Shown here one piece after another: positions 1-64,000 of a stretch of 64,000 nucleotides of DNA (positions are counted from its first letter, which is position 1; every line of letters begins with the position of its first letter). The stretch spans positions 75,144,001-75,208,000 of the forward strand of contig NC_042997.1 in the NCBI RefSeq assembly GCF_006345805.1. The letters are read 5' to 3'. This DNA is from Octopus sinensis (taxonomy: Eukaryota). The position numbers and the translations under genes are program-made. Below the pieces are notes generated by a model. That model ran no database searches and was not told where the DNA came from. It saw only the letters and a program-made list of their open reading frames with translations.

Positions 1-513
1 GTAAAATTAATTAATTAATCAATTTCACCAAGTATTCAGTATGCAAAGGGACCAATTAAGGCGAATTCAAATTATTACATTATATAAAAGGGCTTAGTAA
101 AATAAATTACTTTGCCGCATACTGAACTCATTAGAAATAGCAGCTAAAAAAAACTTTTTTAAAGCTATTTCTAATATTACTAAGCCCTTTTATATAACGT
201 AATAATTTGAATTCGCCTTAATTGGTCCCTTTGCATACTGAATACTTGCTGAAATTGATTAATTAATTAATTTTACCCTCAATTGTTGAAATTATAATTC
301 ATCTCTCTCTATATAATGCCTCGGATTTTACCGAAAAAAGCATAGTGTTTACTGATTTTAACTCACGCTGGTGGAAAGGGGAGAGCAGAAATTCTTCGCT
401 TGCATTTTTGAGTTTGCTGGCACTGTTAGTTTCGAGCAGATCTTCAGAAGCGATAAGAAGCCGAAAGGGTATGCTCACACTTTCAGTGTTTTCAAATCCA
501 AACCAGGGAGTTC

Positions 514-566
514 TGAGCTGATGATAGAAATGTCGAGTTTGACTAATCTTGAATCGTACGTTCTCA
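514..566 (+). ncRNA. Type I hammerhead ribozyme, core-mutated copy (GAAA>GAAT)
   Basis: tgag-CTGATGA-stemII-GAAT-cgtacg-TT-ctca. Confidence 0.6.
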
Positions 567-1070
567 AATAACCTTTGCATTTGATTTTTAATGTCTCTAC
601 CCCCATACTTTCGTGAGTTGAATTGAGCAAACACTATATGAGAGAGGTTTTCTTTAAGTATTAGAAATAGCTTTAAAAAAGTTTTTTTAGCTGCTATTTC
701 TAATGAGTTCAGTATGCGGCAAAGTAATTTATTTTACTAAGCCCTTTTATATAATGTAATAATTTGAATTCGCCTTAATTGGTCCCTTTGCATACTGAAT
801 ACTTGGTGAAATTGATTAATTAATTAATTTTACCCTCAATTGTTGAAATGATAATTCATCTCTCTCTATATAATGCCTCGGATTTTACCGAAAAAAGCAT
901 AGTGTTTACTGATTTTAACCCACGCTGGTGGAAAGGGGAGAGCAGAAATTTTTCGCTTGCATTTTTGAGTTTGCTGGCACTGTTTGTTTCGAGCAGATCT
1001 TCAGAAGCGATAAGAAGCCGAAAGGGTATGCTCCCACTTACAGTGTTTTCAAATCCAAACCAGGGAGTTC

Positions 1071-1123
1071 TGAGCTGATGATAGAAATGTCGAGTTTGAC
1101 TAATCTTGAAACGTACGTTCTCA
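1071..1123 (+). ncRNA. Minimal type I hammerhead ribozyme
   Basis: Stem I tgag/ctca, core CTGATGA, stem II aga..gtc/gac..tct, GAAA, palindromic stem III acgtacgt, GUU triplet. Confidence 0.75.
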
Positions 1124-1315
1124 AATAACCTTTGCATTTGATTTTTAATGTCTCTACCCCCATACTTTCGTGAGTTGAATTGAGCAAACACTATATGAGA
1201 GAGGTTTTCTTTAAGTATTAGAAATAGCTTTAAAAAAGTTTTTTTAGCTGCTATTTCTAATGAGTTCAGTATGCGGCAAAGTAATTTATTTTACTAAGCC
1301 CTTTTATATAATGTT

Positions 1316-1642
1316 ATATATATATATATATATATATATATGATATATATATATATAATATATATATATATTATCTATATATATATATATCTATAATAAT
1401 ATATATATATAATATATATATATTATATATATATATATATATATATATATATATATATATATATATATACATATATATATATATATATATATATTATATA
1501 TATATATATATATATATATATATATATATATATATATATATATATACAATATATATATATATATATGTATGTATATATGTATATATATATATATATATGT
1601 ATGTATATAATATATATGTGTGTATATATATGTATGTATATA
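1316..1642. repeat. (TA)n/(TATG)n microsatellite; similar tracts at ~2492-2870, 3547-4210, 10253-10932, 16461-17050, 23020-23713, 54218-54337, 61844-62110
   Basis: Directly visible low-complexity TA tracts. Confidence 0.95.
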
Positions 1643-2490
1643 ATTGATTGATTGATTGATTGATTCTAGTTTCAGTATGAGCTGTGGCCATGCTGGGGCA
1701 CCGCCATTTGGTGTTGCTACTTGGTTTCACTTCATGGAGGCTTTCTAGCAAACTGCTTTTTGGTGCATGAGAGAGTTCGATGCAGCTGCCCTCATCTGCC
1801 CCTCCTGCCGTGAAGTTGGTTCATCTGGGACACCTGACAGGAAGAGATCCAGCTCCATTTTAAAGACATCTGTATCCACCCCATGCAGGTCTCTCAGGTT
1901 CTTCGGGAGGATATTGAAGAGCTATGGGCCTCGGAAGCCCAGGCTATCACAGAATCTTGTCCTACATCTTGATGGCAAGTTTGGAGTCCTAGGCACCACG
2001 CAGTGGCGCCCAGTTCTGGCATTTGCGTAACTCTCGATGCCAAAGTTCAGGACACTTCCCTCCAGGATCTTCCAGATGTATATTATGGCATATCTTTCCC
2101 GCCTACGCTCCAGGGAATATAATTTTAATCTCTTGAGTCTTTCCCAGTGCTTACATTCTGCATAGAGGCTATCTTCTTCGTGCAGCTTCGTTGGATCGCC
2201 TCAAGTTCTGTGATCAACTTGACACTGGATGGTGACCATAGCTGAGAGCAATAGTCAAAGTGGCTTAGGACAAGTGTCTTCCAGAGGACCATCATGGTTT
2301 CTTGTTCTCTTGTTCTAAAGGTTCTAAGAATCCATCCAGCCAGCCGTCTGCATTTCATTGTCAGTTTAGCAACATGTACATGAAAGATCGCGTCATCACT
2401 CATGTGAATACCCAGGTCACGCACTGATTGTGCCTCTGGGATTGCAATCCCTCCGGGTCCAGTGTATTCCTTGGGTATTGCATTCAGTTG
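1643..2490 (-). mobile_element. 5'-truncated CR1-group LINE (3' end of ORF2, 3' UTR, (CAAT)n tail)
   Basis: ORF 2125-2499 matches the ORF2 C-terminus of other copies ([19 protein letters not shown]). Conserved 3' end ccccagcatggccacagct. Confidence 0.9.
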
Positions 2491-2870
2491 GGTATACATA
2501 TGTATATGTATGTATATATGTATATATATATGTATATATAATATATATGTATGTATGTATATATATATATATATATATATATATATATTATATATATATA
2601 TATATATATATATATATATGTCTGTATATATATATATATGTATATATATATATGTATATATATATATATATGTATATATATATATATAGTATAATATATA
2701 TATATGTACGTATATATGATCTATATATATATATATGTTATATATATCTGTGTATAATATGTATGTATATATGTATATATATGTATATGTATGTATATAT
2801 GTATATATATATATATGTATATATATGTATTGTATATATATATTATATATATATATATTAATATATATAA

Positions 2871-61292: not shown

Positions 61293-61434
61293 TCATCATA
61301 ATTCAGTGCAATCATTAACAGTACTTTCAAGCAATTCAGCCCCGAGCAACGCCGGGCAATTCTGCTAGTACATATATATATATACATATATATATATATA
61401 CATACATATATGTATGTATGTATATATATATATA

Positions 61435-61843
61435 TACTCTTTTACTCTTTTACTTGTTTCAGTCATTTGACTGCGGCCATGCTGCAGCACCGCCTTTAAT
61501 CGAGCAACTCGACCCCGGGACTTATTCTTTTTGTAAGCCCAGTACTTATTCTATCGGTCTCTTTTGCCGAACCGCTAAGCAACGGGGACATAAACACACC
61601 AGCATCGGTTGTCAAGCAATGGTAGGGGGACAAATACAGACACACAAACACACACACACATATATATATATACATATATACGACGGGCTTCTTTCAGTTT
61701 CCGTCTACCAAATCCACTCACAAGGCATTGGTCAGCCCGGGGCTATAGCAGAAGACACTTGCCCAAGATGCCACGCAGTGTGACTGAACCCGGAACCATG
61801 TGGTTGGTTAGCAAGCTACTTACCACACAGCCACTCCTGCGCC
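61435..61843 (-). mobile_element. tRNA-derived SINE (same family as 4211-4624)
   Basis: Reverse-complement similarity over the full length. Confidence 0.88.
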
Positions 61844-62175
61844 TATATATATATATATATATATATATATATATATATATATATATATAATATATATATA
61901 TACATGCATATATATGCATATATATATATATATATATATATATATATATATATATACATATATATATATGTATATATATGTTAATAAAATAGAACATATG
62001 CATATATATAAACATATATGTACGTACCTACCTCTACATGTACATATACACGCATATATGTGTACAGGACACCTATATATATACATATATGTATATATAT
62101 ATATATATATTTGTAAAAAATGAAGTTCGAAAATGCTGCTGTATTATACAATTTTTAATTTTTATATATATACAT

Positions 62176-62216
62176 TATAACATGTTTCAGTTCCTGAAAT
62201 GAACTTTATCAAAAAA
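62176..62216 (-). ncRNA. Degenerate hammerhead (TTGATAA core)
   Basis: TTGATAA-agttc(atttcag)gaact-GAAA-catg-TT; stem I poor. Confidence 0.4.
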
Positions 62217-62944
62217 AGTTATATATAAAAAAAGACAGCTCATGCCGTCAAACACAAGAAATTCATTTATAATACACAACGGAGTCAGACATCTTAGAGT
62301 TCATGTATAGTTGATATATAGTTCATGTATAGTTGATATATAGTTTGAAGTATATGTTCAAAGTGTTCGATGCAGTGGCCCACGGTGGCGATACGTATTC
62401 AATACAAAAAACAGATCAAAGTGGTGGAAAGCGGTCAATACAGAAGATTGATGTTTCCGAAAGAGCGAGGAATTCATTTTTACCTTAAGAAAATGTGATG
62501 ACCCATGGTGGATGTTCGCTGGGTGGTTCTAATGAGTTTTTGTGAAGTGTTCGGTTTTATAATGCCTGTTAGATGGTCAATTCAGCGTAGCGTGACGTCA
62601 TCAACGTTTTGACCAATCGTTTCGTTAGGTGGCTTTAGTCAAGTAGAACGGGACGTCATCATTATTTTGACCAATCGCTGCATTATAACTGCCTCTTGTT
62701 TGTTTCCTGTCCTGACCAGTCGCTTCGTTAGTCAAGCAGAACGGGACGTCATGCAGATTCTGCCCAATCACGACTTATAGCTACATTAGATCTGCCCCCT
62801 GTCTGTAATCAGAATCGGGTCTGACCCTTAGCTGTATCGTATGTATCAGGGTCAAATTTGCACGAAAGAATTTTTTTCCCTTTTTTACTTAGGTATATTT
62901 CCGTCAGAGTGAGTGTCTGTTTGAAGGATTTGCTAGAAGGATTT

Positions 62945-63741
62945 GCACCATAATATCAGACACAAACACCCGACACACACGTCTCCAGGAACTTAGAACC
63001 ACACTCACAAATAGAAACTATCCACAGCCCCTAATAGACAGTGCAATCCAACGGGTACTTAAATTAAGTATAGAAGACCTGAGACAAACAAAACCAAAAA
63101 AGAAAGAACAATTAAAAACCCTTCCCTACATTTCTACACACAACCCACTCAACAATGAGGCCTTCAACACCATACTACAAAGCACAGCCCTACTAAAGGG
63201 AGACCCAAAGATGAACCGGATCCTCGAAACACACACCATCATTAAAAGTAAACGGCAACCAAAATCCTTGAAAACGATTTTAAACCAAGCTACACTGCAC
63301 TCAACATCAACCACAAAACCAGCAGTTAGAAAATGTGGAAGGCCCAACTGCGGAATCTGTGTCATCTTGAAAGAAGGATCAGAATTTATACTGGAACAAG
63401 GCCACCAGTTCACCATTAGAACAAACTTCACCTGCGCATCAGAAAACTTAATTTACGTCATAACATGCGCAGGCTGCAATAGGCAGTATATAGGCCATAC
63501 AAAAAATAGCTTACGTAACAGGATGGCGGTGCATAAATCACAAATTAGAAACCCTGATTACCGCAAAATACCGGTCAGCGGACACATAGATAGATGTGCT
63601 GGAAATGTAAATCCGAAATTTACAACTAACCCGCTCTATAAATTCAGTGACAACGCAACCTTCACACAACGCCAAAATAAAGAACTATATTTCATAAAAA
63701 AATTTAGACCAAGTTTAAACACCCTGGGCCAGGAATACTAA
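62945..63741 (+). CDS. PLE polyprotein C-terminus: RT thumb, Cys linker, GIY-YIG endonuclease (5'-truncated)
   Basis: KCGRPNCGIC, LIYVITC..QYIGHT..LRNRMAVH, KELYFIKKFRPSLN. Confidence 0.88.
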
Positions 63742-64000
63742 AACAAAAGATAAGTCCTCCGAAAAGGAGAAGCAAAATTCCACCACGACCGCTACTTCAA
63801 ACAGACACTCACTCTGACGGAAATATACCTAAGTAAAAAATTCTTTCGTGCAAATTTGACCCTGATACATACGATACAGCTAAGGGTCAGACCCGATTCT
63901 GATTGGTCAACAAGTTGATGACGTCTAGCTCAGCTAGAATGGACAGGATACAAACAGGGGATCTTTTCAATTCTGAAGCCAGGACCACAGATCTTTCTAC

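Follow-up and report, generated by a model that had tools for sequence, protein, structure and literature searches.

Hammerhead-shaped motifs and TA-embedded ends in seven families of Penelope-like elements and non-coding retrozymes at an Octopus sinensis locus

The stretch analyzed in this study, referred to as the window, comprises 64,000 nucleotides of Octopus sinensis DNA (assembly GCF_006345805.1, contig NC_042997.1, positions 75,144,001 to 75,208,000 of the forward strand; positions below are counted from its first letter), and consists almost entirely of mobile elements stacked in arrays of the dinucleotide TA. Hammerhead-shaped motifs, taken as putative ribozymes, sit at the ends of seven families in this window, designated A to G, which comprise Penelope-like elements (PLEs) and non-coding tandem relatives. 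An earlier reading made from the letters of the window alone (the sequence-only reading) had placed hammerheads at 11 sites, and all of these exist, with the coordinates it gave lying 4–80 nt from the cores. Genomic copies were taken from the 30 top-scoring BLAST loci per family and from longer stretches (labeled L). The terms short end and long end denote the two fixed sites past the hammerhead at which most families terminate, as described below.

Families A, B, and E are non-coding tandem retrozymes, with monomer periods of 557 bp, 536 bp, and ∼462 bp, respectively. Family A is present as tandem monomers on the plus strand (174–1318) with cores at 518 and 1075, the first being a mutated, defective copy in which GAAT replaces GAAA, and the second having predicted cleavage after 1119; the short end meets TA at 1315, where a (TA)n array (1315–1642) separates it from the 3′ end of a long interspersed nuclear element (LINE). 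The inner part of the inverted arm occupies 1–176 on the minus strand, and this arm runs left of the window to about −2240, with four hammerhead copies and a long end in TA. Self-BLAST of the window and the neighboring stretch placed the family A inversion at −1040 to 1318, with ends of 286 and 194. Family B consists of ∼536-bp monomers on the minus strand (4763–6516; cores 6185, 5652, and 5124) with the long end in TA at 4763, and an inverted arm on the 5′ side (6516–6711, plus strand) that terminates against a LINE. Family E, with a unit of ∼460 bp in partial tandem on the minus strand (47178–48099; core 47690, predicted cleavage after 47642), is interrupted at 47268–47507 by another repeat, and its inverted arm (48096–48189, plus strand), which carries the short end, is followed by TATA-(CA)n-(TA)n. 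Among its genomic loci, family E is mostly monomeric or in partial tandem (5/30 loci). No same-strand PLE coding sequence was found within 1.5 kb upstream of these families (0/30 loci for each, 0/90 in total). Contigs from five runs guessed to be RNA, and from one of unknown kind, covered A, B, and the neighboring LINE alike, and are uninformative on level, ends, or circles.

Families D and G are likely PLEs of the Neptune/Nematis type, as evidenced by motifs that are common to both clades. The family D copy is a near full-length element (19538–23021, plus strand) with a frameshifted reverse transcriptase (RT) and GIY-YIG endonuclease, a minimal hammerhead with a U6 core at 22890–22917 (plus strand), and a 3′ end in a (TA)n array (23021–23714). 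A CX4CxxC linker and a CCHH finger in the endonuclease were read from the translations, and Pfam matches were weak. An upstream pseudo-long terminal repeat (pseudo-LTR) in tandem was present in 13/30 loci found with the family D 5′ part. At its 5′ end, D is joined head-to-head to family C: at 19538 (within 17053–23021), C (minus) and D (plus) meet 5′ to 5′ with ∼1 nt overlap and no TA between them, the pair being flanked by two TA arrays. The pair may have arisen as a head-to-head chimera of two families or by one insertion after another, and no second C-D head-to-head junction was found among ∼90 C and D loci.

Family G is represented by an inverted arm, which is a copy of the 3′ untranslated region (UTR; 62110–62926, minus strand; core 62212 of the U3-A8 type, predicted cleavage after 62179, short end in TA), and by a main arm (62893–63904, plus strand) with a 5′-truncated RT thumb, linker, GIY-YIG endonuclease (Pfam PF01541, E 6.7e-07), and the start of the 3′ UTR. 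This UTR breaks at 63904 and resumes ∼12.9 kb rightwards with the long end (L032 and L271; to about 76800). The DNA that splits it contains a mariner-like fragment and is bounded by inverted ends of 70% identity; these features seem to predate G, and the break may reflect rearrangement or mis-assembly. An apparently intact G copy, L278, has frames of 479 and 781 codons encoding RT and GIY-YIG domains, with Pfam values of E 1.2e-06 for RVT_1 (just under the cut-off) and E 3.3e-06 for GIY-YIG, and a DKG motif was read in G. The two frames overlap in the −1 register at 5531–5609 of L278, across a T-run that we take to resemble a slippery site. A nested cassette at the G short site in L278 (3019–4145 and 8416–10000) has a ∼16-bp duplication and combines a C-like 3′ end with a hammerhead-bearing E-family copy and a further repeat; the following tandem unit contains it again (99.7% identity), as though it had been copied together with G. 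Partial tandems with pseudo-LTRs were observed in L278, L280, and the 13 tandem D copies. The family G linker and CCHH finger, read from translations, match the Neptune/Nematis description of a CX2-5CxxC linker and a CCHH endonuclease finger (PMC8557442; this and the other papers are cited for those passages that concern the features compared).

Families C and F are probably the 3′ ends of Hydra-type PLEs with long UTRs. The family C copy in the window is a 5′-truncated, rearranged 3′ UTR (17053–19538, minus strand; core 17260, predicted cleavage after 17225), with its long end in a (TA)n array (16460–17053). It was identified by homology to L280, in which a 672-aa RT and endonuclease frame lies between direct repeats. 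This frame has a CxCX5C linker, no CCHH, a terminal CxxC/CxH, and DKT (the DKT by eye, in a frameshifted 5′ part), all of which have been described as marks of the Hydra clade (PMC8557442). There was no Pfam RT or GIY-YIG match for the family C protein, so that its assignment rests on motifs, and the link from UTR to coding sequence rests on L280 and one further locus. A homologue search with this protein gave four matches, none of them named as a PLE, including one Octopus bimaculoides record with 79% over 11% of the query. Family F forms a 98% palindrome of two head-to-head Hydra-type 3′ ends (54338–54641; cores 54469 on the minus and 54578 on the plus strand), with the long end left and the short end right, both in TA. 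A Hydra-type endonuclease lies ∼3 kb upstream of F in three long stretches (L274, L275, and L277), its protein being a ∼40% match to that of family C, with DKT observed in C only. A non-coding nature of C and F was rejected on the grounds of these upstream frames in L280, L274, L275, and L277. Another Hydra-type RT fragment (34–52% to the family C protein) is present at 26826–27355 (plus strand), and no hammerhead was found in 26.5–29 kb. Octopus PLEs with a (TA)n preference (Hydra-1_Obim) or a TA preference (Naiad families) appear in the supplement of PMC8557442.

An RT with a C-terminal GIY-YIG endonuclease was thus found in D, G, C, and F, by Pfam, motifs, or likeness to C as given for each family. 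The sequence-only reading had proposed coding helpers at 19.5 and 63 kb with non-coding passengers. The coding nature of D and G and the non-coding nature of A, B, and E stand, and C and F belong with the coding elements. A helper role of D or G for A, B, and E finds no counterpart in shared sequence, as pairwise comparison of the seven family units gave nothing beyond chance-size matches.

The motifs were scored with a descriptor for the type I hammerhead (CUGANGA, stem II of at least 3 bp, GAAA, stem III, UH, and stem I of at least 4 bp). A stricter first version found one site only, and was relaxed after inspection of the sites to permit a short palindromic stem III. The relaxed version matched 8/11 of the claimed sites (canonical cores at 1075+, 5124−, 5652−, 6185−, 17260−, 47690−, 54469−, and 54578+) and none in 100 block-wise dinucleotide shuffles of the window; the type I core CUGANGA/GAAA/UH with three stems is present in families A, B, C, E, and F. 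Of the three sites missed, 518+ is the mutated copy noted above, and 22890+ and 62212− have variant cores shared across their families. Because the descriptor had been relaxed after the window sites were seen, an independent sample was used, consisting of 58 stretches of 10 kb at round coordinates (579.8 kb of the 2.72-Gb genome). This gave 13 matches as opposed to one in 10 shuffles (0.1 per shuffle), a rate far above that of shuffled sequence, as in the window, and a chance origin of the motifs was rejected. The extrapolated number of canonical hammerheads genome-wide is ∼61,000 (95% interval 32,000–104,000; canonical cores only), which bears out the expectation of very many ribozyme motifs, and may be set beside ∼5,000 in mussel and up to 120,000 in axolotl (PMC7229834), and ∼9,000 in Xenopus (PMC4209133). 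Two of the 13 sampled hammerheads belong to F, one to A, and 10 lie outside the seven families, which indicates that such families are numerous. Relaxed-core matches were noisier against four shuffles (U3-A8, 4 vs. 0, 1, 1, and 0; U6, 2 vs. 0, 0, 0, and 1; U3-G8, 1 vs. 2, 0, 0, and 0) and were left out of the genome-wide estimate. An Rfam scan of the window gave no hammerhead match even at E ≤ 1, returning only TA-repeat noise.

The two core variants are each conserved in their family. The family D core CUGUUGA (22890+), which conforms to the minimal PLE hammerhead consensus except for U in place of A at position 6, is kept in 27–28 of 29 readable closest copies. Exact 26-mers of this core genome-wide number 13,499 with U6 against 484 with A, C, or G at that position, and 0 for backward-read controls. 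Among the first 100 listed, position 7 varies freely (50 U, 23 A, 16 C, and 11 G; hand count) and position 17 is always A or U; G occupies position 17 in 75/11,112. Hammerhead cleavage sites follow the NUH rule, which the low frequency of G at position 17 fits, although the existence of two alleles makes this modest support. Related subfamilies also contain D-like minimal hammerheads that have either C6 or U6 (L082, 4926 on the minus strand; L065, 9197 on the plus strand), which suggests that position 6 may be relaxed in this lineage. Almost every readable close copy of family G has the core UUGAUAA (U3-A8); the proximal stem I is reduced to 1 bp, and the distal stem I is long. This motif at 62.2 kb had been called degenerate by the sequence-only reading; decay was rejected, since the core is nearly invariant in the closest copies, and U3-A8 covariation is known (PMC4209133). 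A6C is a natural position-6 variant in print that lowers cleavage in Mg (PMC3088659; PMC7151607). A natural A6U was not found in a limited literature look-up, by which its absence from print is not established, and U6 was not found in the text or supplement passages of PMC4209133.

Each family can be written as a circularly permuted unit in the order hammerhead, short site, long site, and rest of the unit, with the end sites located in or beside AU-rich words. The 3′ ends were mapped in 209 terminal copies (window copies included; 178 insertions) by counting the nucleotides between predicted cleavage and the first run of TA. TA was met at a fixed distance in 190 of these (91%; post-hoc windows 9–35 nt wide), as against 2.9% of the time for a TA start in a random 25-nt window. 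Six families are bimodal, with peaks at 190 and 285 nt past predicted cleavage in A, 158 and 286 in B, 96 and 184 in C, 146 and 230 in E, 17 and 89 in F, and 66 and 100 in G, so that the short and long sites are 34–128 nt apart; D has a peak at 102 alone. In the unbiased set of 13 sampled hammerheads, TA lay within 450 nt downstream in 11 (background 28%, p 3e-5) and upstream in five. In tandem copies the unit runs on past each end into AU-rich words, so that each end represents a start site inside a permuted unit rather than a tail appended to the end of an RNA. Among 81 uncensored copies of A, B, D, E, and G that lack an inversion, 39 had TA at the 5′ junction as well (looser TA rule, no matched background), C and F being omitted as their low-complexity UTRs make the classes unreliable. 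This suggests that the tract pre-existed the insertion.

Within the window, long TA arrays adjoin the right end of A (1315), the main end of B (4763), C (17053), D (23021), both ends of F, and the inverted arm of G (62110), with those of the A left and G main ends located outside it. The exceptions are the inverted arm of B, which meets a LINE at 6711, and both ends of E: a mere 8 nt of TA adjoin its main end, and TATA-(CA)n-(TA)n adjoins its inverted arm. Other elements also lie among these arrays (coverage 4.1% in the sample, 6.3% in the window). LINE copies with apurinic/apyrimidinic endonuclease and RT are found at 1642–2490, 6711–10250, 12500–16460, 23714–26800, and 50674–54215, most of their 3′ ends being within 45 nt of a TA array. 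The elements at 3170–3547 and 54642–57739, inserted in TA, are presumably non-autonomous and Helitron-like, judging by their TC…CTAG ends; two of the Helitron-like window elements contain 116-bp internal tandem repeats, and a helicase-like fragment lies at 60741–61292 (minus strand). Ends of these non-PLE elements adjoin TA more often in the window than in the sample.

Opposite-strand adjacent pairs were head-to-head (divergent) in 45/46 cases, with none contributed by D, and in the unbiased set all opposite-strand copies were upstream. Inverted insertions numbered 45, and both ends were readable in 30; one long and one short end were present in 29 of these, and two long ends in one (p ∼3e-8 against even odds). 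The combination of long and short was seen in two insertions of A, six of B, three of E, 9/10 of C, eight of F, and one of G, amounting to 11/11 for the non-coding A, B, and E and 18/19 for C, F, and G. Clean junctions were available for 15 insertions, with an overlap or gap mostly of 0–12 nt (one of 20). The short end lay on the longer arm in nine and the long end in four, and the arms were of equal length in two; the other 15 insertions were not resolvable. This mixture of arm orders argues against a single fixed fold-back order.

As to what the sequence-only reading had said of this architecture, TA-bordered 3′ ends hold for the genomic copies and for most window ends, and fail at the B and E exceptions named above. 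TA association at 3′ junctions recurs across the genome, and TA adjacency is not confined to these elements, as LINE, Helitron-like, and short interspersed nuclear element (SINE) ends also abut TA, though less often. An inversion on the 5′ side is seen in A, B, E, F, and G, is reduced to 21 nt at the 5′ end of C, and is absent from D as an inversion of its own; its polarity is upheld by the genomic pairs. PLE insertion structure as such is corroborated by the fixed TA ends, the head-to-head pairs, and the RT/GIY-YIG proteins of D, G, C, and F.

These findings probably reflect a single manner of insertion, in which the 3′ ends of PLEs and non-coding retrozymes come to lie in (TA)n, at either of two fixed positions downstream of the hammerhead motif, through a PLE RT/endonuclease that cuts a TA tract and primes inside uncut or circular RNA. 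The endonuclease would cut both strands of the tract, with the long site primed by one 3′-OH and the short site by the second, and the two cDNAs would be joined at their growing ends with 0–12 nt overlap, giving a head-to-head inversion; a single productive priming would leave a plain 5′-truncated copy. We infer that the TA primer pairs with the AU-rich words, which would probably assist priming. The template would be a multimer or re-ligated circle and not a cleaved linear monomer, since tandem arrays occur and the copies extend across the predicted cleavage site. Families A, B, and E would borrow a PLE protein in trans, and mobilization of retrozymes by PLEs has been proposed previously (PMC7229834; 10.64898/2026.07.22.740005). 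The Poseidon PLE of Anolis has been reported in vitro to cut and extend both strands, to begin synthesis at two sites within the RNA, on either side of the tail, and to use unprocessed RNA (PMC11167929).

Several points weigh against paired priming. Family E is looser, with 23/32 ends at modal sites, and family D has one end only, with no inverted hammerhead pair and no tail form among 31 copies, although the query favored that end. The copies examined are top BLAST matches and hence young, and in the sample other ends also lay within 75 nt of TA (LINE 3′ ends, 3/16; Helitron-like, 3/6; SINE 5′ ends, 6/32). No helper PLE was found for A, B, and E, which share nothing beyond chance-size matches with the other units, and some insertions are near-perfect palindromes, as fold-back would also yield. 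Poseidon starts in an AC-rich stem-loop that is non-homologous to its target (PMC11167929), whereas the ends here are AU-rich, target-like words. The mechanism is moreover inferred from DNA copies.

The main rival is a single priming followed by fold-back, in which self-priming by the cDNA, or by an antisense template, yields a hairpin that the endonuclease resolves at the TA-like short site of the element, leaving a tail-less head-to-head arm. This has already been proposed for PLE palindromes (PMC3846280; termed "EN-mediated resolution" in PMC8557442), likewise predicts one long and one short end, and would suit the palindromic F insertion and several C insertions alike; that other elements have entered the G short site points to a cleavable target there. 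A fixed relation of tail and arm length would, however, be expected, which the mixed arm lengths at the 15 clean junctions do not display, and many junctions join non-symmetrical positions with 0–12 nt overlap; fold-back is considered unlikely. Far less probable still is that TA adjacency is not targeting, the arrays being general hotspots of insertion or survival, or having grown by slippage from AU-rich ends after insertion. The abundance of arrays, the other mobile elements that abut them, and element ends at AU-rich words able to seed slippage would all be accommodated, but the 91% at fixed sites compares with ∼19% for LINE and SINE ends, TA is present at many 5′ junctions as well, very young G copies (99–100% identical) are already flanked by long TA, and a TA preference has been reported for Neptune, Hydra, and Naiad PLEs (PMC8557442). 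That the inversions are chimeras of long reads or assembly is scarcely credible: the assembly does have indel noise and a 100% identical 1,356-bp inverted repeat in a LINE at 49312–52029, yet artifacts would not yield head-to-head order in 45/46 pairs, nor long and short ends at family-specific sites in 29/30 insertions. The repeat itself is a LINE 5′ region centered on a TA/TATG tract, and may be a fold-back event or an assembly artifact.

Building on paired priming, a wider reading is offered tentatively, and with more doubt than confidence. One such route may serve Neptune- and Hydra-type PLEs and circular retrozymes alike, each inverted insertion using both fixed start sites once, and at the same time the most abundant Neptune-type family may be spreading a natural A6U hammerhead that remains under selection as such (N7 being free and G being avoided at position 17), and that might need a protein to function or might serve not as a self-cleaver but as a protein-binding fold.

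The system itself is already described in the literature (PMC8557442; PMC4209133; PMC7229834; PMC11167929), including the 5′ inversion, partial tandems, one-end tail, hammerheads, and TA bias of PLEs (PMC8557442), and its architecture alone would be unsurprising to a PLE specialist. What is added here is an insertion signature common to non-coding retrozymes and coding PLEs, together with a U6 core, position 7 being free, in 13,499 copies of the putative family D ribozyme. These bear on the origin of tandem and inverted PLE insertions, the role of PLE hammerheads, and the mobilizer of animal retrozymes. The long and short rule, common to coding and non-coding families, ties retrozymes to PLE machinery by insertion signature, and could be put to the test in vitro with the PLE system now available. 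The U6 core, missed by standard descriptors and Rfam, offers a natural test of whether PLE hammerheads must cleave, and the genome provides tens of thousands of young copies along with the apparently intact G copy.

Compared with known systems, D and G share with the Neptune/Nematis PLEs the RT with C-terminal GIY-YIG, the CX4CxxC linker, and CCHH, with DKG in G, as well as pseudo-LTR tandems, a 5′ inverted copy, a one-end tail, a hammerhead near the 3′ end, and TA bias (PMC8557442). They differ in the U6 core of D, in the U3-A8 core and weak proximal stem I of G, and in the 479-codon upstream frame of G that overlaps the RT frame. Families C and F share with Hydra-clade PLEs the linker, the absence of CCHH, the CxxC/CxH endonuclease end, a canonical hammerhead, and TA insertion. 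Hydra-clade elements are described as "generally <3 kb" with tails of 30–40 bp (PMC8557442), whereas C and F have ∼6-kb units (6.1 kb for C in L280), low-complexity 3′ UTRs of 3–3.6 kb (∼3 kb in F), and tails of 72–88 nt; the published size is a tendency and not a strict criterion. Among minimal metazoan PLE hammerheads (PMC4209133), D fits CUGANGA-N-stem II-GAAA-CG-UH save for position 6, and the U3-A8 core of G is described there, as are extreme stem diversity in one genome and opposite-strand pairs. With Poseidon (PMC11167929), the proposal shares two internal RT starts, extension of both strands, an AT-rich target, and an uncleaved template. Families A, B, and E resemble non-LTR animal retrozymes in being non-coding, AT-rich tandem monomers (460–557 bp here) with one type I hammerhead per monomer and a mostly palindromic stem III (PMC7229834; 10.64898/2026.07.22.740005). 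The published case for these argues from co-occurrence and pseudo-LTR similarity, whereas the retrozymes here, read in DNA copies, bear the PLE insertion signature itself, namely the fixed double 3′ end, the head-to-head inversion, and the TA target.

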